DNA of 64,000 bases from Candidatus Saccharimonadales bacterium (GCA_040876925.1 JBBDOS010000005.1:40815-104814), one strand, 5' to 3'. Positions 4,793-62,850 are shown, counted from the stretch's first letter. Notes: generated by a model not told the origin, from the sequence alone. Translations and numbers: made by a program.

Positions 4793-6007
4793 TCAAGTCT
4801 CTAGAGACGTAATACCCGGTAATTCCTCACCTGTCATTAAATCAAGAGCTGCACCACCGCCAGTAGACACCCAAGAAAAGTCATCTATCATACCAAGTTG
4901 TTGAATAAATCCGGCCGTATCACCACCGCCAACTATGGAAGAAGCTTCTGATTCCACAATAGCTTCGGCCAACTTGTGAGAGCTCTTAGCAAATTCTGGT
5001 AGTTCTATCATGCCTAGTGGCCCGTTCCAAATAATAGTTTCAGCTGATTGGACTATCTTAATAGCCCCTTCAAGAGATTCCGGTCCAAAATCAAGCACAA
5101 TATCATCTTCACTAATGACTGAGATGGGTATAACTTTAGCTTTTTCATCCGGAGAAATATCTTTACCAACCGCTATATCATCGCGTGGGAGATAGATAAA
5201 ATCTCTCACCCTACTATCACTATAGTCATCTGGATTATCCTCGGCCTTAACACCGAACTTCTCAGCTATAGTTGCATATATATCAGCAATTTCTCTTGCC
5301 ATATTATCCTCGTGTAAGCTTTTACCAATAGTGGAGACGTCATGCTCGGGAGAATTAATTAGAAAGGTATTGGCCATACCGCCACCAATAATTAAACGAT
5401 CTACTTTAGGTATTAGAGAGTGTAATACTTTCAACTTATCGCTAATCTTAGCCCCACCGACAATAGCTACTAATGGTCGCTTAGGATTTTCTATGGAGTC
5501 GGTTATAGTATTAACTTCTTTCTCCAATAACAACCCTGCCACGGCCGGTAAGAACTTGGTTATAGCTACAGTAGATGCATGGGCTCTATGCACTACACCG
5601 AAACCATCTTGGACAAAAACATCTCCTAAACCAGCTATCTGCTTAGCGAAATTATCATCATTACTTTCCTCACCCGGCCAAAAGCGCAAATTCTCTAGTA
5701 GAGTTATTTGAGACGTACTATCTACATCCTCAAGATCAGCAACAAAAGCTACTGGCTGTTTCACGAGGCTGCTTAAATGCTTGGCTACATTTTGCAGTGA
5801 GTACTGAGGATCTGGTTTACCCTCAGGCCTACCAAGATGACTGATAATAACAACTTGGCAATCTTGTTTGATTAGGTATTCTAAAGTAGGTAGTCCTTGA
5901 ATAATCCTGTAATCATCAGTTATCTCGCCGTTATCAGTTGGCACGTTATAGTCAGCTCGAAGTATTACCTTCTTGCCTTTAACATCTATGTCTTTGATAG
6001 TCTTCAT
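4793..6007 (-). CDS. pgk: Phosphoglycerate kinase
   Basis: N-terminus KKVILRADYNVP and 404 aa PGK-type domains. 4-nt ATGA overlap with the upstream pyk. Confidence 0.92.
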   Translation of the reverse strand: MKTIKDIDVKGKKVILRADYNVPTDNGEITDDYRIIQGLPTLEYLIKQDCQVVIISHLGRPEGKPDPQYSLQNVAKHLSSLVKQPVAFVADLEDVDSTSQITLLENLRFWPGEESNDDNFAKQIAGLGDVFVQDGFGVVHRAHASTVAITKFLPAVAGLLLEKEVNTITDSIENPKRPLVAIVGGAKISDKLKVLHSLIPKVDRLIIGGGMANTFLINSPEHDVSTIGKSLHEDNMAREIADIYATIAEKFGVKAEDNPDDYSDSRVRDFIYLPRDDIAVGKDISPDEKAKVIPISVISEDDIVLDFGPESLEGAIKIVQSAETIIWNGPLGMIELPEFAKSSHKLAEAIVESEASSIVGGGDTAGFIQQLGMIDDFSWVSTGGGAALDLMTGEELPGITSLET

Positions 6008-7718: not shown

Positions 7719-7895
7719 ATGTCAAAGAAACGTCGCAAGAAATCAAAGTCTCAAGCTGCTCAAAAAGCCAATATTTATCGCTATGATGCTGAAGAGGAAG
7801 AAAAGAAGGCTTTCAAGAAGAAGTTAAAGATTAGATTAATCGTTACTGCTGCCTTAGGCGCTATTGTCTTCCTTATCCTGATGTTGATCTTTTGA
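7719..7895 (+). CDS. Possible small (58 aa) protein: basic N-terminus and C-terminal TM helix. Convergently overlaps the 3' end of the histidine kinase gene.
   Basis: ATG 7719 ... TGA 7893-7895. Translation MSKKRRKKSKSQAAQKANIYRYDAEEEEKKAFKKKLKIRLIVTAALGAIVFLILMLIF. No clear Shine-Dalgarno. Confidence 0.2.
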   Translation: MSKKRRKKSKSQAAQKANIYRYDAEEEEKKAFKKKLKIRLIVTAALGAIVFLILMLIF

Positions 7896-10028
7896 TTCTG
7901 ATTCGCTACCTATATTAAACCCAAACCCAAACACCGAACCCTTGCCTTCTTCTGAGGAGAAGATTATCTCCCCACCCTGTATCTCTATAACCTGCTTGGC
8001 CATATATAGCCCTAGGCCAGTGCCATCTGGTCTAACTGTCTTAGCGTTCTCGGCCCTAAAGAATTTCTTAAACAGCTCTTTTTGAGCTGCTTGTGATACA
8101 CCAATACCGTTATCCTCTACCCTAAACTCAACTGCATTATCTTGACTTTCAATATATACATCTACCTTACCTTCTGGAGCATAGTAGATAGCGTTATCAG
8201 TAAAGTTCATGACTACCTGGCGAATTTTAGTTTCATCTAATACTAATTTAGGAATCTTCTCTTTTGGTTTATGTAGAGTTAACTTAACATTCCTGGCCTC
8301 AGCTTGGCGATGTAGCTGATTAACCTCTTCCTCGACTAGCTCAACCATATCAATTTCTTCTTTATCGATAGTTAACTTACCAGTACTAATACGAGAAACA
8401 TTGAGCATATCCGCTATTAGATGAACCATCCTTTTGGAGCTAACAAAAGCTAAGTCTATGAACTCGGACTGCTTTTTAGACAACTTACCGGCATCACCTT
8501 CTAGGAGCATGGACAGATAGCCTTTGACAGTAGTTAATGGTGTGCGCAATTGATGAGAGGCCATCGAGATAAACTCATCCTTAGCCTCATCAAGCTTAAC
8601 TAAGCGCTGATTGGTTTCCCGTAATTTAGCTGTAGCGTCCTCTACTTCTTTCTTCAAAGTTTCCGAGAAGGCTTGTATCTCCTGATAGCTCTTAGCGTTC
8701 TCTATAGCTACTGCTAGCTCTTGGGAGAGTATTTCTAGTAAGTTAATGTCTTGTTTAGTATAGATAGTGCCAGAACGCTTAGTACCAAGTAAGAGATACC
8801 CCACTAACCCTTCATTAGTAGCCAGTTTAACGGCTACATAAGTATTCATATCATTTAGGGTGCTCTCAACTTCCTTGCCACTAACTTCGTCTAGTATAGT
8901 TATTTTATCTTCTAACTTCTCTAGATCAGTAATATCAACCTTTATCTCTTCGCTACTACCGATATGGGTCGCCTTATATATCCCATCATTGCCAAGTACA
9001 ATTAGACGACCAAACTCTACTTTGAGCGTATCGACAATAATATCTAAGCTATCATCTAGTAAATCAAAGCTATTGCTTTTAGCTACAAACACTTTACCTA
9101 GACGGTTTAATACATCCTCTGAATCATAGCTGTCCTGATAAAAAAGTCTATTAGTTAGTTTATCGAAAAACCGTTTCAGTGGCTGGAAGGTAAAGACTAA
9201 GAATACTGCAGAAATAGTATAGAAGGCTTGTTGCAAAGTCGAGGTGCCGGTATCTGGGAAGAACTGGTCGACAAAACCAAAGACAAAGTAGCCATACACC
9301 AAGCCAAGAGTTAGTATGACTAGAGCATAAGCTAAGGAGCGAGCAACGACTAGTCTAATATCAAAGAGTCGATGGCGCACTATTACATAAGCCATAGTAG
9401 CTACAAACAGTATTACGGTAGGCGCACCAAATAATATAGTGTATTGAGTCATGTCTAAAGCTACAAACACAAAATTTGAAAATAGGTTAAGCAGTACGGT
9501 CACTACACTTCCCCATATAATAAGTTTAATTTGGGCGGATGCTCTTAAGGAATGTTTGCGTTTGCGAAACAGAATAATAAAAGAAGATATGAAATATATG
9601 GCAAAGTACAGACCGAGCAATACGTACAAAGCACCAAATTCATCAATCTGAGCCCCTAACCCCTCATAATGAACACTTCTAATCATTTGGGGGCTAAAGG
9701 ATGATAAAGACAGCGCTATTGCTGGTATGGCAAGTAATGCATATTTTAACTTGCTTATCTGAGAGCTGAAAGGAAATATTAGGCTAAAATACAAATAGAA
9801 AAGAGGTATTAAGGAAGCGAATAATATTGCTACCCTAATAGCCAATAAACTATTGGCTATATTACTAGCAGTATCTGCAAACAGTAGACTAGTAGACCAC
9901 CCAAGTATCAATACGACTGTTATAGCAAACAGTCTGTTGTGAGCTACTTTGGGGTTTTGTAGGTAGACAAAAAAAGCCAGCCCCGCAAGTGTTAATATTA
10001 CTGGTATGTATATTAGGAAGTTTATCAA
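7854..10028 (-). CDS. Sensor histidine kinase with a large N-terminal polytopic membrane domain, a central GAF-like region, and HisKA and HATPase_c domains
   Basis: About 330 aa of multi-TM N-terminus. H-box SHQLRTPLTTVKGYLSML. G-box DNGIGV...GTGLGLYMAKQVIEIQGG. Confidence 0.85.
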   Translation of the reverse strand: MINFLIYIPVILTLAGLAFFVYLQNPKVAHNRLFAITVVLILGWSTSLLFADTASNIANSLLAIRVAILFASLIPLFYLYFSLIFPFSSQISKLKYALLAIPAIALSLSSFSPQMIRSVHYEGLGAQIDEFGALYVLLGLYFAIYFISSFIILFRKRKHSLRASAQIKLIIWGSVVTVLLNLFSNFVFVALDMTQYTILFGAPTVILFVATMAYVIVRHRLFDIRLVVARSLAYALVILTLGLVYGYFVFGFVDQFFPDTGTSTLQQAFYTISAVFLVFTFQPLKRFFDKLTNRLFYQDSYDSEDVLNRLGKVFVAKSNSFDLLDDSLDIIVDTLKVEFGRLIVLGNDGIYKATHIGSSEEIKVDITDLEKLEDKITILDEVSGKEVESTLNDMNTYVAVKLATNEGLVGYLLLGTKRSGTIYTKQDINLLEILSQELAVAIENAKSYQEIQAFSETLKKEVEDATAKLRETNQRLVKLDEAKDEFISMASHQLRTPLTTVKGYLSMLLEGDAGKLSKKQSEFIDLAFVSSKRMVHLIADMLNVSRISTGKLTIDKEEIDMVELVEEEVNQLHRQAEARNVKLTLHKPKEKIPKLVLDETKIRQVVMNFTDNAIYYAPEGKVDVYIESQDNAVEFRVEDNGIGVSQAAQKELFKKFFRAENAKTVRPDGTGLGLYMAKQVIEIQGGEIIFSSEEGKGSVFGFGFNIGSESESKDQHQDKEDNSA

Positions 10029-17021: not shown

Positions 17022-17438
17022 ATGGATACTAAAGATTACGGACCAAAACCATACGTAGTAGATATAGAAGAGCTAACTACTTCTAATAATAAATTCAGGG
17101 TAGCTAAATGGACTGGATCTAATATGCAGATGACTGTTATGTCTATACCTGCTGATGGAGAAGTTGGATTAGAAGTACATAATGACCATGATCAATTCTT
17201 ACGTATAGAATCAGGAGAAGCTAAAGTCGTTATGGGACCCAGTGAAGACAATCTAGATCAAGAATGGGATGTTCAAGACGACTTTGCTATATTCGTACCA
17301 GCCGGTACTTGGCACAATATTATCAACTCTGGTGATGACGACTTAAAACTCTACTCTATATATGCTCCACCTGAGCATGCTCACAGTACTATGCATGAGA
17401 CTTTTGAAGAAGCAGAAGCTGACGAGCACCATCAATAG
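17022..17438 (+). CDS. Cupin-domain protein
   Basis: GEVGLEVHNDHDQFLRIESGEA ... VPAGTWHNIINSGDDDLKLY (two cupin motifs). AAGGAGG ribosome-binding site upstream. Confidence 0.7.
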   Translation: MDTKDYGPKPYVVDIEELTTSNNKFRVAKWTGSNMQMTVMSIPADGEVGLEVHNDHDQFLRIESGEAKVVMGPSEDNLDQEWDVQDDFAIFVPAGTWHNIINSGDDDLKLYSIYAPPEHAHSTMHETFEEAEADEHHQ

Positions 17439-17513: not shown

Positions 17514-17975
17514 ATGGCGGATGAAATACAACTACGAGGTGGATCAGAAGCAGAGAATGACTCCTTCACTGGCGCCCAAAGAGAAGTTACTGTCGATACT
17601 ACTAATAAGACTCTTAGAGTACATGATGGTACAACAGCCGGAGGATCTAAATTAGCTACTCAAGACTATGTTGGCGATAATACCGCCTCTTTGACAGTTG
17701 AGAACGAATCGGGTACCAGCTACACAGTGGTGGCTGCCGATTCGGGAAAAGTGAAGCGGTTTACAGACGCTTCACAAGTAACAGTGACGCTACCAGATGG
17801 ACTGGCGGTCGGCACAATTGTGCATTTACTGTCGGCAGGTGCTGGAGGATTATCTATTGAGTCAAATGCTTCTTCGACAGTAGATCCGAATGATCCGGGT
17901 ACGGTAGATGAGGCAGGTGAGGCATCAGCGTTAGTAGTAGCTACTGACACCTGGAACGTACAAGGAACAGCATGA
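17514..17975 (+). CDS. Phage tail-fibre N-terminal-domain protein. The GC content rises along the gene.
   Basis: N-terminus MADEIQLRGGSEAENDSFTGAQREVTVDTTNKTLRVHDGTTAGG matches the widespread conserved N-terminal domain of phage tail fibre / receptor-binding proteins (IQxRRG...GE...DT..L+xxDG pattern). The stop overlaps the next gene's start (ATGA). Confidence 0.6.
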   Translation: MADEIQLRGGSEAENDSFTGAQREVTVDTTNKTLRVHDGTTAGGSKLATQDYVGDNTASLTVENESGTSYTVVAADSGKVKRFTDASQVTVTLPDGLAVGTIVHLLSAGAGGLSIESNASSTVDPNDPGTVDEAGEASALVVATDTWNVQGTA

Positions 17976-19201
17976 GTGTTGCGCTTCTTCGCCGTCGTGG
18001 AGTGTTGGCTGCTGGCGGGGGTGGGGGTGCACAGTTCGCTGTCGGCAGCTTTACGGCAGACACATCTACCGGGACGCAGCAGTTCGCTCACGGTCTTGGG
18101 ACGACTCCGAAGGCGATCTTCTTTTTCGGTTCGGGGTCTGCTGCGGTGTCGGGGACGTGGGATGCGCACGTTCATCAGGTAGTCGGGTTTAGTGATGGCA
18201 CGACTTCTTATGCAGTTTCTGGTGCGTCGGAGGACGCGGTAACGACGTCGAATACAGAGCAGCGTATTGCGGCGAAGTGCATCACGATTATTAGTGATGG
18301 CGAGGTGGTGATCGGTGAGGCGGATTTGGATTCGTGGGATGACACGAACATCACGGTGGATTGGACGGACGCGCCGGTCACATCTGACGAAATTATGTTT
18401 TGGGTTGTCGGTGGGGAGGGTGTTGAGGCGAAAGTTATGAACTGGCAATCACCTACTTCCACAGGGAATAAGGTGATTGACACAGTTGGTTTTCAACCTG
18501 ATTTGGTGCTACACGCCACGGTCTACGCGGCGTCGTCAATCCCGGACTCTTCTGGGTATATGGCTACAGGGTTTGGTGCGATGGATGGTGCTGGTGGACA
18601 GTGGACGAACGCTGTTGCGGCACAGGCTAGTCAGTCCACGAGCAACACGGGCCGATATCAGCGCACCGATAAGTGCATCTCAATTTTACAGGCTAATGGC
18701 ACTAGCCTTCCGGTAAATGAGGAGGCCGAGTTTGTGTCGATGAATTCGGGCGGTTTCACGGTCGATTTTACGACTGCGAGCGCGGGCGAGTGGAACTACA
18801 TCTCTTTGTGTATCAAGGGTGTCAACGCCAAAGTGCTGTCAGTCTCCGAAAGCGGCTCAGACACCCAAACCATCGACACTCTCACCTTTGAGCCATCCGC
18901 GCTTCTGACAGCCAATACTAGGCAAGCGGGGAATAGCGGACTTGTTGCTACGGATGCGTTGTTCGGAATAGGAGCAGCCACCGGAGATGCCCAACGCGCT
19001 ACTGCGCAAAGCGACCGCAATGGGCAGGCAACAACCGACGCGGAGTCGCTGTGGAAAAACAACCGGCACATTATCATGCCCGAATATGGGTCAATCAAGG
19101 CGGAAGCATCACTCACGTCGTTCAACGCAGACGGATGGACCGAAGATTGGGCGACCGACCCTGAAACAAATGTGCGTTACTACATCGCTTTAGGAGCCTA
19201 A
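17972..19201 (+). CDS. Large Gly/Ala/Thr/Ser-rich hypothetical protein, probable tail-fibre/receptor-binding partner, on a GC-rich island
   Basis: 409 aa at about 55-58% GC in an otherwise AT-rich locus. Translationally coupled to the upstream tail-fibre-domain gene. Followed immediately by GC-rich hairpins. Confidence 0.55.
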   Translation: MSVALLRRRGVLAAGGGGGAQFAVGSFTADTSTGTQQFAHGLGTTPKAIFFFGSGSAAVSGTWDAHVHQVVGFSDGTTSYAVSGASEDAVTTSNTEQRIAAKCITIISDGEVVIGEADLDSWDDTNITVDWTDAPVTSDEIMFWVVGGEGVEAKVMNWQSPTSTGNKVIDTVGFQPDLVLHATVYAASSIPDSSGYMATGFGAMDGAGGQWTNAVAAQASQSTSNTGRYQRTDKCISILQANGTSLPVNEEAEFVSMNSGGFTVDFTTASAGEWNYISLCIKGVNAKVLSVSESGSDTQTIDTLTFEPSALLTANTRQAGNSGLVATDALFGIGAATGDAQRATAQSDRNGQATTDAESLWKNNRHIIMPEYGSIKAEASLTSFNADGWTEDWATDPETNVRYYIALGA

Positions 19202-22318: not shown

Positions 22319-24190
22319 GTGGAAGAGCATAGGCAAGTTCAGACACCAGCAAATATTACACAACCACTGGGCGTGTCACAGTTTCATGGAGAAACAGTTC
22401 TAGCTTATCAAACACAAAAACCAGGACATCAAAAACTAACCGTTGCTACTAGTGATAATGGTCTTAACTTTAGCGAGCATCATGATAGCCCAGTTATACT
22501 TTCTCCTGCTGGGCGAGTAGAGGATTTAGATAAATCTAGCAACTTCAGATTAGTAACTATCGCTCAACAAGAACTAGTCTCCTATATCAAACACCCCGAT
22601 GAAAACGGTATTGGTGATTTGACACTAGCTACCCCAGCTGATGAACATTGGGATATAGCTACTTGGATGAATGTAGAGCTCAAGCAACCCATCAAGGCTA
22701 GTAGTGCTAGCTTGATACCAGAGCATAAATCTGATGGCCATTATGTCATGTATTTTGCCGATCAAGATGGTATTAAATTAGCCACCGCTAAGAATATTCA
22801 TAACTGGCAGATTAGAAAACGGCCTGTACTGCCTCTGCGTAGTGGATATTTTGATGAAAAGGATATAGATATCATATCCACCCACTATTATGAACAAGGT
22901 ATTATGATTATTTACTCTAGTAAATCTCGTAAAAGATTTAAGACAGTAAATCAGATAGGTATAGCTTTTCTAGCTAATGACAATCCGGCTCAATTACTTT
23001 GGCGAAGTGATGAACCATTCTGGAAAATAACTAATAGACATCGTGGCGATAAGATAATAGGTGCTAGTGTTGATGGTGATAAGATAGTTCTTTATATCTA
23101 TGAGCTACATAAAGGTATTTACTCGGTTAATATCACTAATCCATTTATGACCCATAAACTAATCCAGCAAAAAATTAGTCTAGATAGATATAGCAATAAC
23201 CCAATCATAGCTCCAGAAAATAGACAATCGTGGGAGGCTATAGGCACCTTTAACCCTGCTGTTATGGTAGGAAAAGATGGACGCATACATATGCTATATC
23301 GAGCCATTGGCGCCGACGGCATATCTAGACTGGGTTACGTGAGTAGTAGTGACGGCTTTAGTTTTGATGATAGCTTGCCATACCCCGTATATACTATGAA
23401 AAAAAGTAGCCGAGACCTAAAAGAGCAAGAATATAACCCTATCACTAACCCATCAGGTGGTAGCTGGAGTGGCACGGAAGATCCTAGAATGGTATCTATA
23501 GAAGGTAGAGTTTATGTGACTTTCAACACCTTTGATGGTTGGAATTTTATCAGAGCTAGTGCTATCACTATCAGTGAAGACGATTTATTGAAAAAGAATT
23601 TTGCCTGGGATGAACCTATGTACCTATCGCCTCTTGGAGAAATTCATAAGAACTGGGTGATATTCCCGGAAAAAATTAATGGTAAATTTGCTATATTACA
23701 CAGCATATCCCCAGAACTTCAGATAGATTATGTTGATAATTTAGAAGATCTACACAACAATAAGAAGCGGATAAAAAGTCGTTTTGGCCAAAAACAACCA
23801 AGAAAAACTTGGGACACCTGGCTAAGAGGTGTGGGGCCGCCCCCAATTAAAACCGATAAGGGTTGGTTAATTCTCTATCACGCAGTTGATAAAAAATACC
23901 CCAATCAATACCGATTAGGGGCAAAATTGCTAGATCTTAAAAACCCTAGGAAGATTATCGCTAGATCAGCCGCACCGGTATTGGTGCCTAGCCAGTGGTA
24001 TGAAAACGAATCAAAGCCAGGGGTAATTTACGCTTGTGGAGCTATTATAAAAAATGGTCAGCTACTAGTATATTACGGTGGAGGTGACAAGCATGTCTGT
24101 ATAGCTTCTGCTTCGATAGATGAGTTCATCAAGGAGTTATTAACTGATCGCAAGCCTCATTTGAATTTTAACCAAGTAACAATTTCATGA
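22319..24190 (+). CDS. Two-domain GH130-family (beta-mannoside phosphorylase-like / DUF377 five-bladed propeller) protein; start codon uncertain
   Basis: C-terminal half: NPIIAPENRQSWEAIGTFNPAVMVGKDGRIHMLYRAIGADGISRLGYVSSSDGFSF...GTEDPRMVSIEGRVYVTFNTFDG matches the GH130 core pattern (NPII.PE..W...FNPA......LYRA....S.LG.A.S.DG..F...EDPR). The N-terminal half is more divergent. The track uses a GTG start with no Shine-Dalgarno. Confidence 0.6.
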   Translation: MEEHRQVQTPANITQPLGVSQFHGETVLAYQTQKPGHQKLTVATSDNGLNFSEHHDSPVILSPAGRVEDLDKSSNFRLVTIAQQELVSYIKHPDENGIGDLTLATPADEHWDIATWMNVELKQPIKASSASLIPEHKSDGHYVMYFADQDGIKLATAKNIHNWQIRKRPVLPLRSGYFDEKDIDIISTHYYEQGIMIIYSSKSRKRFKTVNQIGIAFLANDNPAQLLWRSDEPFWKITNRHRGDKIIGASVDGDKIVLYIYELHKGIYSVNITNPFMTHKLIQQKISLDRYSNNPIIAPENRQSWEAIGTFNPAVMVGKDGRIHMLYRAIGADGISRLGYVSSSDGFSFDDSLPYPVYTMKKSSRDLKEQEYNPITNPSGGSWSGTEDPRMVSIEGRVYVTFNTFDGWNFIRASAITISEDDLLKKNFAWDEPMYLSPLGEIHKNWVIFPEKINGKFAILHSISPELQIDYVDNLEDLHNNKKRIKSRFGQKQPRKTWDTWLRGVGPPPIKTDKGWLILYHAVDKKYPNQYRLGAKLLDLKNPRKIIARSAAPVLVPSQWYENESKPGVIYACGAIIKNGQLLVYYGGGDKHVCIASASIDEFIKELLTDRKPHLNFNQVTIS

Positions 24191-24208
24191 TAGGATTTTT
24201 AACTAAAT

Positions 24209-26113
24209 ATGTTTAGCGTTTTTAGAAACCCATTTAATCCACTAGTAACTCCCAGTACTAGGCAACCTTGGCGTAATCTATCAGCTTTTAACCCATCGCC
24301 TGTGGTTACAGATAATAAGCACTACCTAATCTACCGCGGCATGGCTAAAGAGTCCTACTATCATGGCCATCGACTGGAGATATCAACCATTGGTATATGC
24401 GATAGCCCAGATGGTAATGAGTACGACAATCACCGCCAATTAATAGTGCCTGAGGAGTCCTGGGAAAAATTTGGTATTGAAGACCCTAGAGTAACCAAGA
24501 TAGATGATACTTACTACATCTTCTATACCGCTATATCTGAATTTCCCTTTGGAGCTAGTGGCATTAAAGTAGCCGTAGCTTTAAGTGATGATTTAGAAAC
24601 CATTAAAGAACGGCACCTAGTAACGCCATTTAACGCTAAAGCTATGGCCCTATTTCCAGATAGAGTAAATGGCAAGCTTTGTGCCATACTCACCATCCAT
24701 AGCGATATGCCGCCAGCTAGAATAGCCATTGCCTATTTCGATAAGCCAGAAGACATTTGGGATCCCAAATACTGGGAAAAGTGGTATGCCAACCTTGAAA
24801 GTCACTGCGTAGATCTAATTTATGAGGAAGATGATCATGCTGAAGTAGGTGCACCGCCACTATTAACTGATGAAGGGTGGTTACTAGTTTATTCTCATAT
24901 CCAAAACTACTTTAGCGAGGATAAAATATTTAGTATTAAAGCAGTCTTACTAGATAAAGATGATCCGACTAAATTCATCGCTAGAACTAGGTATCCATTC
25001 ATGATACCTCAAGAAAACTACGAACGATATGGCTATATAGATAATATTATCTTCCCTTCAGGAGCAGCTATAGAGGGAGAAGATTTAAGTATCTACTATG
25101 GTGGTGCCGATACAATCTGTGCTAACGCTAAGATCAATCTTAAAAGACTACTAAAAGAGCTGATCAATCCCGATCATGAACATGTCAAAAGATACGAAGG
25201 CAACCCAATTATGGCTCCAGTGCGAGAGCATCCATGGGAATCCAAGTACGTCCTGAATCCAACAGCTATAGATTTAGATGGTAAAGCGCACATACTCTAT
25301 AGGGCGATTGATCAACATTACACATCAACTATCGGCTACGGCTCTTCTAAGAACGGTCTATCTATCGATGAGAGACTGGATAAACCGATATATGTACCTC
25401 GCATAAGAGCAGAGATAAACCAGTCTGAGTCAGATGGGAACTCAGGCTGTGAAGATGCCCGGATAGTAGAGATTGATAATAGGCTATATATCACCTACAC
25501 CGCCTACAACGGAGTAGATATGCCCCATGTAGCTATTAGCTCCATCGGTAAGGATGAGTTCTTAAATCATCAATGGGATAGGTGGAGCAAGCCACAAATC
25601 ATATCCCCTAAAGAAGTGGATGATAAAGATGCGGCTTTATTTCCGGAAAAGATTAATGATAAATATGTCATTTTACATAGGATTGATAGACATGTCTGTA
25701 TTGATTACGTAGATACTTTGGATTTCTCTAAAGAAAAGTTAGTTAGGTGTATCCAGGTCTTGGGTCCTAGAAGAGGTATGTGGGATAGCCAAAAAGTTGG
25801 TATTAACGGTTCACCAATTAAAACAGATAAGGGCTGGTTGATGTTCTATCATGGTATCAATAAAGACAATGCTTATTGCATGGGTGCTATATTATTAGAC
25901 CTTGAAGATCCAACTATAACGCTGGGGCGTAGCGCTCAGCCAATTATGGAGCCAGTAGCGGACTATGAGAAGAATGGCTGGGTAAATAACGTAGTTTTCT
26001 CCTGTGGACAGATAGTTAGAGACGATACTATCTATATATATTACGGTGGGGCCGATAGTGTAGTTTGTGTAGCTACTATACCATTAGATCTAGTGCTAGA
26101 TGGGTTGAGTTAG
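24209..26113 (+). CDS. Two-domain GH130-family protein, paralog of the upstream gene
   Basis: Two GH130-like repeats: ...EDPRVTKIDDTYYIFYTAIS... and NPIMAPVREHPWESKYVLNPTAIDLDGKAHILYRAID...GYGSSKNGLS...CEDARIVEIDNRLYITYTAYNG. Shared C-terminal YYGGGD/YYGGAD motifs with the upstream protein. Confidence 0.6.
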   Translation: MFSVFRNPFNPLVTPSTRQPWRNLSAFNPSPVVTDNKHYLIYRGMAKESYYHGHRLEISTIGICDSPDGNEYDNHRQLIVPEESWEKFGIEDPRVTKIDDTYYIFYTAISEFPFGASGIKVAVALSDDLETIKERHLVTPFNAKAMALFPDRVNGKLCAILTIHSDMPPARIAIAYFDKPEDIWDPKYWEKWYANLESHCVDLIYEEDDHAEVGAPPLLTDEGWLLVYSHIQNYFSEDKIFSIKAVLLDKDDPTKFIARTRYPFMIPQENYERYGYIDNIIFPSGAAIEGEDLSIYYGGADTICANAKINLKRLLKELINPDHEHVKRYEGNPIMAPVREHPWESKYVLNPTAIDLDGKAHILYRAIDQHYTSTIGYGSSKNGLSIDERLDKPIYVPRIRAEINQSESDGNSGCEDARIVEIDNRLYITYTAYNGVDMPHVAISSIGKDEFLNHQWDRWSKPQIISPKEVDDKDAALFPEKINDKYVILHRIDRHVCIDYVDTLDFSKEKLVRCIQVLGPRRGMWDSQKVGINGSPIKTDKGWLMFYHGINKDNAYCMGAILLDLEDPTITLGRSAQPIMEPVADYEKNGWVNNVVFSCGQIVRDDTIYIYYGGADSVVCVATIPLDLVLDGLS

Positions 26114-59789: not shown

Positions 59790-61622
59790 ATGAAGCTTAG
59801 CGATGTTGCTATCCAGGCACTAATCAAAGAATCTATCGACAATGAGGTTTTAGAAGCAGCCAAAGATCAAGCTGCCAAGCAGAAGAAATCTCTTCAAGAT
59901 GTGTTGCTGGATAAAAAAGTAATTAGCGAGAAAGACTTAACTAAACTATACGCCGATAATATCGGTGCTGAGTTCATATCCTTAAGTGATATCAATATTG
60001 AACCCCCTGTCTTAAACCTAATCCCTGAACATATAGCTAGAGAGTATCGAGCAGTGTTGTTTGAAGCTAGCGATAAGGGTGAGCGCAAAGTAGCTATATC
60101 AGATCCTGGTGACCTACCAGCTATCGATGCCTTAGAAAAGTTACTAGGTAAAGATGTCTATTTCTATATAGCTACCGATGCTGATATTAATAAAATACTA
60201 GATCAATACAAAGGCAATTTAGATAGTGAAATAACCAAAGTTATTCCTGACGGTGAAGACGAAGTAACTCCTGAAGAAATTAGTGCTGATGAAGTAGCTG
60301 AAGACTCCCCTATCGCTAAAACCGTTAATTTGTTAATTGAATATGCCATTAAAGAAGGAGCTTCAGACATCCATATTGAGCCTAGAGAGCAAGTAGTACA
60401 GATTCGCTACCGGGTAGATGGAGTCTTGAGAGAAGCCAATACCCTACCGAGAAACTTAATGCTAGCTCTAGTATCACGTATCAAAATTATGGCCAATCTG
60501 AAAATTGATGAGCACCGCAAACCTCAAGATGGTAGATTTAAGATTCAATCATCATCTGGCACAGTAGCCCTGCGTGTATCAACTCTCCCCACTATGGACG
60601 GAGAGAAAGTGGTAATGAGATTATTAGATGAATCATCTAGAGCTTTAACTCTTAAGGAGCTTGGTTTTGGTGCTAGCGCCTATGAACGTATGGAAAGAGC
60701 TATGCACCAACCACACGGCATGATACTAGTTACCGGACCAACCGGTTCTGGTAAATCCACCACTCTTTACAGTGTTTTAACTAGTCTAAATTCACCTAAA
60801 GTTAATATATCTACAGTTGAAGACCCGGTAGAATACCGCATCCAAGGAGTCAATCAAACTCAAGTCAACCCTAAAGCTGGCATGACCTTCGCCTCAGGTC
60901 TTAGAGCGCTACTTAGACAAGATCCCAATATTATTATGGTTGGTGAGATTCGCGATGGTGAAACAGCCGATTTAGCTATCCAGGCAGCTTTAACTGGTCA
61001 CTTAGTATTATCAACCCTGCACACCAACAACGCTGCTACTACACTACCTAGGCTACTTGATATGGAGGCTGAGCCATTTTTGATAGCTTCAACTGTTAGG
61101 GTTGTAGTCGGTCAACGTCTGGTACGTAGAATCTGTCAAGAATGTCGCTTAAGCTACCAGCCTGATGAGAAAGAAATGGCCAAGCTCAACCAAGAATTTC
61201 ATATTGATAAATACCTAGATATGATCAATGAAAATCTAGCAGAAAATAGGCAAGATAGCCTTAATAAAAATAGCGACAAAAATAAAGCTGGTAAAAAGAA
61301 AAAGGATAAAGACAGCCAAGAAAGTACCCCTACAACAGATAAGATCCCTAATAAAATCGATATCAATAATTTGACACTATACAAAGCCGGTGAAGGCTGT
61401 GATAAATGTGACGGACAAGCATACAAAGGTAGGATGGGTATTTATGAAGTTTTGGAGATTAATGAGACTATCAGCAAATTAATAGTTAGTAATGCTACTA
61501 GTGATGATATCCAACACCAAGCCATAGAAGATGGCATGATGACTATGCAGCTAGATGGTTTTATTAAAGCTATTAGTGGCTATACTACTATTGAAGAAAT
61601 ATTAAGAGTAACTAGGGAATAA
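59790..61622 (+). CDS. pilB: Type IV pilus assembly ATPase PilB (GspE family)
   Basis: T2SSE_N domain, Walker A VTGPTGSGKSTTLYS, tetracysteine CxxC...CxxC, and a Lys-rich insertion near the C-terminus. Confidence 0.88.
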   Translation: MKLSDVAIQALIKESIDNEVLEAAKDQAAKQKKSLQDVLLDKKVISEKDLTKLYADNIGAEFISLSDINIEPPVLNLIPEHIAREYRAVLFEASDKGERKVAISDPGDLPAIDALEKLLGKDVYFYIATDADINKILDQYKGNLDSEITKVIPDGEDEVTPEEISADEVAEDSPIAKTVNLLIEYAIKEGASDIHIEPREQVVQIRYRVDGVLREANTLPRNLMLALVSRIKIMANLKIDEHRKPQDGRFKIQSSSGTVALRVSTLPTMDGEKVVMRLLDESSRALTLKELGFGASAYERMERAMHQPHGMILVTGPTGSGKSTTLYSVLTSLNSPKVNISTVEDPVEYRIQGVNQTQVNPKAGMTFASGLRALLRQDPNIIMVGEIRDGETADLAIQAALTGHLVLSTLHTNNAATTLPRLLDMEAEPFLIASTVRVVVGQRLVRRICQECRLSYQPDEKEMAKLNQEFHIDKYLDMINENLAENRQDSLNKNSDKNKAGKKKKDKDSQESTPTTDKIPNKIDINNLTLYKAGEGCDKCDGQAYKGRMGIYEVLEINETISKLIVSNATSDDIQHQAIEDGMMTMQLDGFIKAISGYTTIEEILRVTRE

Positions 61623-61638
61623 GGGAGCTTGATATAAA

Positions 61639-62850
61639 ATGGCTGAATTTCAATATACCGCTATGAACAACAAAGGAGAAATGCAAAAAGGACGCATTGA
61701 AGCTGATAATAAAGAGGCTGCTATATCAGCTATGAAATATAAGGGTCTAAGCCCTCTGAAGATAGAAAAGACTCATAAATCTATTAAGAATATTAATGTT
61801 AGTCTAGGTAGAGCAAATAAGGTTAAGTCCAGGGATATTGTCATCTTTACTAGGCAGATGGCCACCATGGTTGGTGCTGGTGTACCGATAATTAGATCTC
61901 TATCAACCATGAAAGAACAAAGTGACTCCCAGGCTCTTAAGAAAATCTTAGAAGATATAGTTGCTGAAGTAGAAGCAGGCACACAACTATCAGAAGCTAT
62001 GAGTAAATACCCCCGAGTTTTTTCTAGTGTTTACGTTAATATGGTCAAGGCTGGTGAAGAAGGCGGTATTTTAGATGAAATTATGGATAGGTTGGCTAAT
62101 CAAGTAGAAAAAGATGCCGAAATTAAAGGCAAACTACGTAGTGCTATGGTCTATCCCGGAGTTATATTAACAGTAGCTATAGGCGCTGTTATATTCCTAA
62201 TCACTAACATTATTCCTAAATTCACTGTGATATTTGATGATTTTGAGACCGATCTACCTATCCAAACTCAATTGATGTTAAATCTTAGTGACTTCTTAAT
62301 TAGCTATGGCTTAGTTCTAATTGTAGCTATAGTAGTTATTTCTATAGCCGTCATGAGATTTGTGCGTAAGCCGAAGGGTAAATATATGCTAGATACTTTG
62401 CTAATGAAACTACCTGCTTTTGGCACTATTATTCTAAAAATTAACGTAGCTAGATTCGCTAGAACCTTTAGCTCACTGACAGGAGCTGGAATATCGGTAA
62501 TTGAGGCCATGAAAATTACTAGCGGCTCTCTATCCAGCTCCGTCATGCAAAAAGGCATAGAGGTAAGTATTACTAAGATCAAAAACGGACAACCGATAGC
62601 TGCTTCATTAGCAGAATCTAATATATTCCCTGCTATTGTTACCCAAATGGCTGCTATTGGTGAAGAGACTGGACAGATAGATACAGTACTAGAACGAATA
62701 GCTGTATTTTACGAGCAAGAAGTAGATAGAACTATAGCTAGTATCAACTCCATTATCGAACCAGCCCTAATAGTTGGGCTAGGCGGTATAGTGGCTTTAA
62801 TCATCGCTAGTATCTTTGGACCGTTAACTGAAATCACTCAAGGCTTTTAA
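61639..62850 (+). CDS. pilC: Type IV pilus platform protein PilC (GspF family)
   Basis: Two GspF repeats, three TM segments, 403 aa. Confidence 0.88.
   Translation: MAEFQYTAMNNKGEMQKGRIEADNKEAAISAMKYKGLSPLKIEKTHKSIKNINVSLGRANKVKSRDIVIFTRQMATMVGAGVPIIRSLSTMKEQSDSQALKKILEDIVAEVEAGTQLSEAMSKYPRVFSSVYVNMVKAGEEGGILDEIMDRLANQVEKDAEIKGKLRSAMVYPGVILTVAIGAVIFLITNIIPKFTVIFDDFETDLPIQTQLMLNLSDFLISYGLVLIVAIVVISIAVMRFVRKPKGKYMLDTLLMKLPAFGTIILKINVARFARTFSSLTGAGISVIEAMKITSGSLSSSVMQKGIEVSITKIKNGQPIAASLAESNIFPAIVTQMAAIGEETGQIDTVLERIAVFYEQEVDRTIASINSIIEPALIVGLGGIVALIIASIFGPLTEITQGF

Follow-up and report, generated by a model that had tools for sequence, protein, structure and literature searches.

A conserved two-gene GH130 module of Patescibacteria with three active-site types and a probable role in cytoplasmic beta-1,2-mannoside processing

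The closest characterised system to the genes described here is the adjacent pair Teth514_1788 and Teth514_1789 of Thermoanaerobacter sp. X-514 (PDB entries 9FJ8 and 7FIP), which encode a 1,2-beta-oligomannan phosphorylase and a beta-1,2-mannobiose phosphorylase of glycoside hydrolase family 130 (GH130). Our subject is a pair of neighbouring GH130 genes, G1 and G2, in a 64,000-nucleotide (nt) stretch of a Candidatus Saccharimonadales genome (GCA_040876925.1 JBBDOS010000005.1:40815-104814, hereafter the window), where they span roughly 3.8 kb. Each protein was analysed as two halves, named G1-N, G1-C, G2-N and G2-C. The two Teth514 enzymes are the best sequence and structure matches of G2-C, G1-C and G2-N, and the likeness includes the arrangement as adjacent paralogs, the lack of signal peptides, a Glu/Lys residue pair that marks beta-1,2 specificity (PMC7660257, PMC4599007), a short L2 loop and the absence of a GH130_4-type lid. 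In contrast, the Teth514 enzymes are single-domain proteins that both have a full phosphate site, whereas here four domains on two chains hold one full site, at about 40% identity to the Thermoanaerobacter proteins. The gene clusters also differ: that of Teth514 includes an ABC transporter, a GH5 enzyme, a mannose-1-phosphate guanylyltransferase and a GT4 enzyme, whereas the pair in the Candidate Phyla Radiation (CPR, or Patescibacteria) has other neighbours.

Several other described proteins bear on the comparison. An earlier note on this DNA had taken known GH130 enzymes to be single-domain; this is true of more than 99% of the family, which is mono-modular, but CAZy already held GH130-GH130 proteins in 2018, numbering 4 of 1592 sequences (PMC7660257). 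These uncharacterised proteins likewise have two GH130 modules per polypeptide. Both of their modules fall in the same similarity-network meta-node (PMC7660257), whereas those of G2 share about 32% identity and have different residues at the phosphate site. The GH130_3 beta-1,2-mannosidases BT3780 and BACOVA_03624 have the Glu/Lys pair and the proton donor in common with the CPR domains, and have lost basic phosphate-binding residues, as has G2-N and, in part, G1-C. Unlike the CPR pair, these Bacteroides enzymes are signal-peptide-associated, and they use a Glu227/Glu268 pair as base. At the Arg position G1-C has Ser or Gly and no equivalent carboxylate; the conserved residues D166, D209 and E212 of G2-N, near the two basic positions, are possible counterparts of that base. 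Uhgb_MS, a bifunctional mannoside synthase/phosphorylase of GH130_4, supplied reference residues for our alignments; it carries a 48-residue lid loop that limits its products to a degree of polymerization of 3, and in alignment to the references this lid is missing from all CPR domains.

Outside the family, the Leishmania GT108 proteins MTP1-7 have a similar propeller fold (Foldseek match to MTP2, 6q4x, TM-score 0.60 on target), use beta-1,2-mannan as substrate and form a paralog array in which complete and incomplete phosphate sites split synthesis from phosphorolysis. They belong to another CAZy family, are eukaryotic and single-domain, and the strict transferases among them have His at the Arg/His switch where G1-C has Ser or Gly. 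Use of GDP-mannose is a GT108 trait; for the CPR module only the fold likeness to GT108 stands. In the literature searched we found no prior description of the module in CPR bacteria; the nearest is a brief reference to 'two enzymes of family GH130', lacking signal peptides, in a Microgenomates genome (PMC7143001).

The reading that we favour, and regard as reasonably probable, is that the pair is the Saccharimonadales copy of a conserved Patescibacteria module with three GH130 active-site types, dedicated to the cytoplasmic processing of beta-1,2-mannosides. G1-C, followed by G2-N and G2-C, would act on beta-1,2-linked mannosides in the cytoplasm, with G2-C as the putative phosphorylase. The evidence comes from family profiles, structure models, active-site residues across orthologs, and the distribution and neighbours of the genes.

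The family assignment was examined for whole proteins and for halves. PF04041 (Glyco_hydro_130, curated cut-off 26 bits) matched whole G1 at E 5.5e-41 and whole G2, in two stretches, at E 1.4e-94; by half, it gave 127 bits for G1-C (E 9e-37), 154 bits for G2-N (E 5e-45) and 167.5 bits for G2-C (E 4.5e-49). G1-N alone scored 17.9 bits, which is under the cut-off, and 40.7 bits against the NCBIfam GH130 model. The GH130 ancestry of this half is reliably detected by profile-profile comparison only, where hhalign matched a profile of its 61 orthologs to the G1-C and G2-C profiles with a probability of 98.9% (E 1.6e-17, 251 columns). All eight key positions of the working site are replaced in G1-N (Q31, S74, N75, S128, F146, A147, S200 and H264) and drift among orthologs, so that, judged by its residues, it is a dead GH130 relic. 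Two copies of the GH130 core pattern had been proposed for each protein; G2 indeed has two real copies, but G1 has one, G1-N lacking the pattern that was quoted. The GH130 assignment itself holds, the profile and structure searches having neither placed the proteins in GH43 or GH32 nor come back without a significant match. The sole rival family was GH43, with a sub-threshold match of 20 bits against a cut-off of 32.2 over G2 residues 25-108, and GH130 is preferred.

Within GH130, the closest model was NCBIfam NF052550 (beta-1,2-mannobiose phosphorylase), which gave 423 bits for whole G2 and 228 bits for whole G1, below its equivalog cut-off of 450; per domain the scores were 262 (G2-C), 192, 169 and 41 bits, and the proteins are not its equivalogs. 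The best PDB sequence matches of G2-C were the 1,2-beta-oligomannan phosphorylase 9fj8 (E 3e-60) and the beta-1,2-mannobiose phosphorylase 7fip (E 1e-58), and both G2 domains align end to end by sequence with these two entries. In a Foldseek search of the G1 model, 9fj8, 7fip and 9gph covered the C-terminal domain at TM-scores of 0.80-0.84 on target, Teth514_1788 (9fj8) being the best match of G1-C at 0.82. No PDB chain covered both propellers of the whole G1 model, for which the best query-normalised TM-score was about 0.42. The five-bladed beta-propeller of GH130 is thus found in the C-terminal domain of G1 by Foldseek, and in G2 through a confidently all-beta model together with sequence. 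The AlphaFold2 model of G2 (pLDDT 94.6, pTM 0.91) predicts two propellers in one rigid unit, and in G2-N a helical insertion of some 20 residues (about residues 180-199). That of G1 (mean pLDDT 87.5, pTM 0.60) is less rigid as a chain, and G1-N is confidently all-beta in it.

To place the active-site residues, the sequences of Teth514_1788, Teth514_1789 and Uhgb_MS were taken from PDB alignments and aligned with all ortholog domains. In UhgbMP numbering, the proton donor is D104, phosphate is bound by R168 and H231, and the +1 subsite comprises R59, Y/E103, R/K150 and D304 (PMC7660257); the Uhgb_MS equivalents are E136/D137, K184, R202 and R242 (PMC12814180). An Arg/His pair marks the phosphorylases (PMC7660257), and the family's hydrolases have the basic residues swapped for carboxylates (PMC4599007). 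The phosphate-binding Arg has been described as a determinant of phosphorylase activity, which the R202A change in Uhgb_MS reduces 16-fold (PMC12814180). Among the groups of a 2020 survey, those with a proton donor all carried the Arg/His pair or else a carboxylate base (PMC7660257).

The sugar-binding part of the site, with subsites -1 and +1, is kept in three of the four domains. The equivalents of R59 and D304, the Glu, the proton-donor Asp, the Lys and a Tyr are invariant in G1-C, G2-N and G2-C, and also in the single-domain proteins that stand in place of G1 in other genomes (see below). The Asp is G1 D388 (61 orthologs), G2 D92 (112) and G2 D416 (112), and the Glu/Lys pair, likewise invariant in all orthologs, is E387/K444 in G1-C, E91/K144 in G2-N and E415/K473 in G2-C. 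At the proton-donor position G1-N has N75, which varies among its orthologs, and so lacks the GH130 Asp.

The phosphate-binding part of the site divides the domains. The phosphate Arg is present in 112 of 112 G2-C sequences, and in 0 of 61 G1-C, 0 of 52 single-domain partner and 0 of 112 G2-N sequences. G2-C has the complete phosphorylase set, with H490-R491 and H548 in all 112 orthologs and a Lys or Arg where Uhgb_MS has R242, and is the only domain with the Arg/His pair. In G1-C the His is kept (His521) but the pair is incomplete: the Arg position holds Ser in 34 of the 61 orthologs, Gly in 22, Ala in 2, Asn in 2 and Asp in 1, and in the single-domain partners Ser in 50 and Asn in 2. G1-C also has R503 one position off the equivalent of Uhgb_MS R242, a family-specific invariant Lys566 and, together with the single-domain partners, a conserved 'NPSGG' insertion right before the Glu-Asp. 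In G2-N, L-T-x-x-x-D-x-P-P faces the H-R of the references, with T162 as Thr in 96 of the 112 orthologs, Ser in 11, Ala in 4 and Met in 1, and with D166 invariant in a 50-sequence alignment. S229-H230 stands against the reference Y-H (S229 being Ser in 97 orthologs, Ala in 14 and Cys in 1, followed by H230), and D209-H210-x-E212 against the R242 region. In G1-C and G2-C the L2 loop, which follows the HR motif, has the short form seen in the Teth514 enzymes.

PMC7660257 lists neither the residue state of G1-C nor that of G2-N, and by these residues neither domain is to be filed as a canonical phosphorylase. The earlier note had counted four phosphorylase-like domains and proposed to check the catalytic Asp and the phosphate-binding Arg and His in each. 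Three domains are intact and keep the Asp, but the Arg/His pair and the full phosphorylase set occur in G2-C alone, and G1-N has none of these residues. Coordinates of the genes, domains and diagnostic codons are collected in Table 1.

Table 1. Genes, domains and diagnostic residues of the GH130 pair, in positions of the window.
Feature	Position	Strand	Description
G1	22319..24190	+	Open reading frame (ORF), GTG start, 623 aa; pseudo-GH130 domain followed by a GH130 domain without the phosphate-binding Arg
G1-N (aa 1-284)	22319..23170	+	Degenerate, GH130-derived all-beta domain, judged catalytically dead
G1-C (aa 285-623)	23171..24187	+	GH130 propeller; sugar subsites and proton donor kept; Ser462 at the phosphate Arg position
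G1-C key residues			R328, E387, D388, K444, H521 and D590 present; Ser462 replaces Arg
Codon Ser462 of G1	23702..23704	+	Position of UhgbMP R168 / Uhgb_MS R202
G2	24209..26113	+	ORF, ATG start, 634 aa; two intact GH130 propellers in one chain
G2-N (aa 1-323)	24209..25177	+	Divergent GH130 domain; R43, E91, D92, K144 and D301 kept
G2-N losses			Phosphate Arg replaced by L161-T162 plus a 3-residue insertion; His replaced by S229, then H230; conserved acidic D166, D209, E212
G2-C (aa 324-634)	25178..26110	+	Domain of canonical beta-1,2-mannoside phosphorylase type: R365, E415, D416, K473, H490-R491, K529, H548, D616
Codon Arg491 of G2	25679..25681	+	Sole phosphate-binding Arg left among the four domains

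The gene calls are sound. Two adjacent ORFs of 623 and 634 aa are present on the same strand, as had been claimed, with a gap of 18 nt. The start codons, previously described as unclear and without a Shine-Dalgarno sequence, can be accepted: AGGA lies about 12-13 nt 5' of both of them, and the GTG start of G1 is credible because an ortholog (P0121; 73% identity, 100% coverage) has the same length of 623 aa. The closest database proteins to the pair are partial Candidatus Saccharimonadales entries at 93% and 99% identity.

The pair is widely conserved. Full-length orthologs of G2 number more than 100, at 50-60% identity, and those of G1 (600-650 aa) have 37-47% identity; single-domain proteins of 360-380 aa match the C-terminal half of G1 only, at 53-60% identity. 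In a scan of one genome per GTDB species, relatives of G2 were found in at least 591 species representatives, nearly all with Patescibacteria names; the record names include Saccharimonadia, many Parcubacteria/Paceibacteria candidate phyla and Levybacteria. Of 84 loci, 82 have a gene of the G1-C type immediately 5' of G2 and in the same orientation; the other two loci begin at a contig edge. This upstream partner has two domains, as in the window, in 34 loci and is a single domain with an N-terminal transmembrane helix in 27; it is a single domain without a clear helix in 14, is cut by the contig in 5 and has an intermediate length in 2. In other lineages, that is, an N-terminal transmembrane helix takes the place of the G1-N region. 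Three distant loci have the pair in common and differ in their neighbours. Four natural proteins (971-1110 aa) fuse G1-C, G2-N and G2-C in gene order, an argument for joint action of the three domains. G2-N is also matched by a few stand-alone proteins of about 325 aa.

The duplications that produced the module are old. A neighbour-joining tree has pure clades of G1-C (together with the single-domain partners), G2-N and G2-C, and members of one domain type are about 60% identical, different types 31-40%, and the identity to the Thermoanaerobacter enzymes is about 40%; hhalign profile-profile scores agree with this picture of old paralogy. The clades and identities together indicate that the duplications predate the split of the sampled CPR lineages, and they rule out a recent tandem duplication. 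What had been taken for an unusual local duplication is instead an old module conserved across Patescibacteria, with each domain type in a clade of its own.

Some relatives depart from the common layout. A few of the genomes with the module bear the labels Omnitrophota, Planctomycetia or Bdellovibrionales (loci L014, L031, L043, L048 and L052); these could be mis-binned or mislabelled metagenome-assembled genomes, or a real transfer outside the CPR. A third GH130-like gene, 32% identical to G2-N, lies directly downstream of G2 in locus L005 (7936-8919, +), and a 348-aa unannotated gene holds the matching position in L002 (10011-11057, +), so some Saccharimonadia may have a further paralog of the module. 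In some two-domain relatives (P0248 and P0269) the best match of G2-N type is in the C-terminal half (residues about 316-641), and the order of domains may vary in the wider family.

Specificity and cell location were judged from residues and from N-termini. Scavenging of N-glycans had been suggested for the pair. At the two specificity positions, Tyr and Arg characterise the beta-1,4 and N-glycan-core enzymes of GH130_1 and GH130_2 (PMC7660257), and in the ortholog alignment this pair was found in none of the three intact domains. N-glycan (beta-1,4) scavenging is not supported, because the pair is Glu/Lys in all three, and we rejected such a specificity. Neither G1 nor G2 has a signal peptide or a hydrophobic N-terminus. 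The partners with a transmembrane anchor have more Lys and Arg in the flank on the C-terminal side of the helix in 27 of 27 cases, and their catalytic domain is accordingly predicted to be cytoplasmic. We rejected secreted or cell-surface action on the strength of the missing signal peptide and this positive-inside analysis, and direct action on host cell-wall glycans, which had also been proposed, is unlikely for the same two reasons. Processing of imported or of endogenous beta-1,2-mannosides is possible. Anchored single GH130 partners occur in many Paceibacteria-type loci of the series L015-L082 (for example L016 at 4960-5952, L036 and L051), and a membrane-tethered GH130 domain without the phosphate Arg is unusual for the family.

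A metabolic link was sought among the neighbours. Clustering of the neighbour ORFs of 83 loci yielded two recurrent families. The first consists of cupins about 117 aa long with a match to PF01050, the C-terminal domain of mannose-6-phosphate isomerase (PMI), at 70.5 bits against a cut-off of 23.6; it was found in 48 of the 83 loci, and in 45 of them the gene lies upstream in the same orientation. The second, HAD-IIB hydrolases of about 254 aa (TIGR01484, 82 bits), passes the model of eukaryotic phosphomannomutase as well (PMM; PF03332, 39.4 bits against a cut-off of 22.4); it was found in 40 loci, in 26 of which the gene follows G2 in the same orientation, mostly no more than tens of bases away. 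Both are nearly constant in loci where the partner has a transmembrane anchor (cupin 26 of 27, HAD 22 of 27). GDP-mannose pyrophosphorylase, transporters and secreted glycosidases were not recurrent among the neighbour clusters. The conversion of mannose-1-phosphate (Man1P) to fructose-6-phosphate via PMM and PMI is the standard ATP-saving route after GH130 phosphorylases (PMC4264767).

These observations suggest the following scheme for the module. G2-C would be a genuine phosphorylase of beta-1,2-(oligo)mannosides with alpha-mannose-1-phosphate as its product, which in many relatives would be converted to fructose-6-phosphate by the operon-encoded PMM-like HAD-IIB protein and PMI-type cupin; the route could also run in reverse, because phosphorolysis is reversible. 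In G1-C and G2-N the Asp and sugar contacts are invariant, at positions that drift in the dead G1-N. For this reason both domains almost certainly retain binding of beta-1,2-mannosides, and probably some catalytic activity. They are unlikely to be ordinary phosphorylases, having lost the phosphate Arg, and G2-N has lost the His as well and gained conserved carboxylates. By our estimate G2-N may be more hydrolase-like, with acidic residues in place of basic ones (compare PMC4599007), and G1-C may be a transferase or transglycosylase with a weak phosphate site, or may act on a different chain length. In a published decision tree, a short L2 loop with only three phosphate contacts leads to weak or absent phosphorylase activity and possible transferase activity (PMC12814180), a pattern to which we liken G1-C. 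In about a third of the sampled loci G1-C would be tethered to the inner face of the membrane. G1-N, as a non-catalytic relic, is probably a structural partner that gives G1 the same two-propeller build as G2.

Several points weigh against this reading. Mechanism calls based on residues are weak, and every member of the module is known from sequence and models alone. In GT108, active-site residues do not by themselves decide between phosphorylase and transferase (PMC10913872), and the R202A mutant of Uhgb_MS loses transferase activity (PMC12814180). A rewired phosphate site in G1-C is possible given His521, R503 and the invariant Lys566, and G2-N keeps H230 beside the lost His and also has H210. 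Every domain scores higher on the NCBIfam phosphorylase model than on the BT3780 mannosidase model, and the match of D166 and E212 of G2-N to the BT3780 Glu pair is one of spacing only. The metabolic link is thinner for the form of G1 found here: with two-domain partners the PMI-type cupin was present in 13 of 33 loci and the HAD gene in 7 of 33. By tblastn neither gene is present in the window, where the only related protein was a generic Cupin_2 protein at 17022-17438 (28% identity, E 1.6e-5), so that the mannose-phosphate link rests on the relatives. Nor did the neighbour clusters of the 83 loci point to a transporter or to a source of beta-1,2-mannosides.

Other explanations distribute the same evidence differently. 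The module might both build and degrade an endogenous cytoplasmic beta-1,2-mannan as a reserve-polymer cycle comparable to Leishmania mannogen, which we consider unlikely. Synthesis would proceed by reverse phosphorolysis or through the Arg-less domains and breakdown through G2-C, with the PMM-like and PMI-like neighbours providing the connection to glycolysis. Such a cycle would agree with the predicted cytoplasmic location of all domains, with neighbours that hold no recurrent transporter or secreted glycosidase and are enzymes of the reversible path between Man1P, mannose-6-phosphate and fructose-6-phosphate, and with the short L2 loop that G1-C and G2-C have like the bifunctional Teth514 enzymes. 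The presence of paralogous sites with and without an intact phosphate site parallels the Leishmania MTP array of strict transferases and phosphorylases (PMC12814180, PMC10913872), and retention of the module in hundreds of reduced genomes also speaks for a cycle of this kind. However, GDP-mannose pyrophosphorylase is not recurrent in the loci, beta-1,2-mannan from CPR bacteria is not reported in the literature searched, the R202A change in Uhgb_MS abolishes transferase activity instead of favouring it (PMC12814180), and the PMI and HAD genes would equally suit catabolism. Extended to the whole group, the proposal would be that a cytoplasmic reserve or buffer of beta-1,2-mannan, similar to mannogen, is widespread in Patescibacteria and is made and degraded by three dedicated GH130 site types: one phosphorylase and two Arg-less types with different chemistry, of which one is often membrane-tethered, again with PMM-like and PMI-like enzymes leading to glycolysis. 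In this broad form it is a speculative and rather improbable conjecture.

The loss of the phosphate Arg in G1-C and G2-N could instead mean that G2-C is the only catalytic domain, G1-C and G2-N being pseudo-enzymes that bind sugar, imitate the homo-oligomeric state of ordinary GH130 enzymes and keep long substrates in place or present them. G1-N shows that fully dead GH130 domains are tolerated in the lineage, GH130 enzymes normally act as dimers or higher oligomers in which the interface between catalytic sites includes loop L2 (PMC12814180), and G2 is predicted to be a rigid pseudo-dimer. We nevertheless judge this improbable: the Asp and all sugar contacts are 100% invariant in G1-C and G2-N (61 to 112 orthologs) at positions that drift in G1-N, domains of the G1-C type are also found on their own, as single-domain proteins tethered to the membrane, and G2-N is matched by a few stand-alone proteins. 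Far less probable again is the view of the earlier note, in which four active phosphorylase domains of recent origin scavenge N-glycans or the mannan of a host cell wall. It was right about GH130 membership, and the organism belongs to the Saccharimonadales, whose cultivated members are described as growing as epibionts on other bacteria. Yet one domain is dead and two are without the phosphate Arg, the duplications are old, the specificity pair is Glu/Lys and not Tyr/Arg, and there is no signal peptide and a predicted cytoplasmic orientation. The favoured reading remains cytoplasmic beta-1,2-mannoside processing by three distinct site types.

The window has about 40% GC, small genes and 11 tRNAs. 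Both here and in the closest relative (L001) the pair is flanked by a rimK/Zn-protease pair and a dnaJ-dnaK-grpE-hrcA operon, and this local context gives no functional clue. An orphan 409-aa ORF at 17972-19201 (+), rich in Gly, Ala, Thr and Ser and lying in a stretch of about 50% GC against about 40% for the genome, has no Pfam match and no tandem repeats, and no gene of such size is listed in the syntenic region of L001; it may be a foreign or a surface or structural gene. At the right end of the window (59790-62850, +) a type IV pilus/type II secretion system assembly ATPase (T2SSE and MshEN, 610 aa) is followed by a T2SSF platform protein (403 aa), and pseudopilin-like ORFs recur near the GH130 module in 13 related loci. 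A 723-aa sensor histidine kinase with a seven-transmembrane N-terminal region and a GAF domain, fairly elaborate for a reduced genome, is encoded at 7854-10028 (-).

CPR bacteria have very small genomes and little known sugar metabolism, and the module is still kept in at least 591 species-representative genomes, which suggests that it does something important. It also adds two natural classes of GH130 site in which the proton donor and all sugar contacts are kept and the phosphate-binding Arg is gone. If these domains without the Arg turn out to be hydrolases, transferases or phosphorylases with a rewired site, sequence-based rules for GH130 function would need revision. An endogenous substrate would point to a storage glycan in CPR bacteria. 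If the mannogen-like proposal were true, these ultra-small episymbionts would have a pathway for storing carbon or saving energy that has so far gone unrecognised, and GH130 would gain a mechanistic class distinct from both its canonical phosphorylases and its canonical hydrolases.

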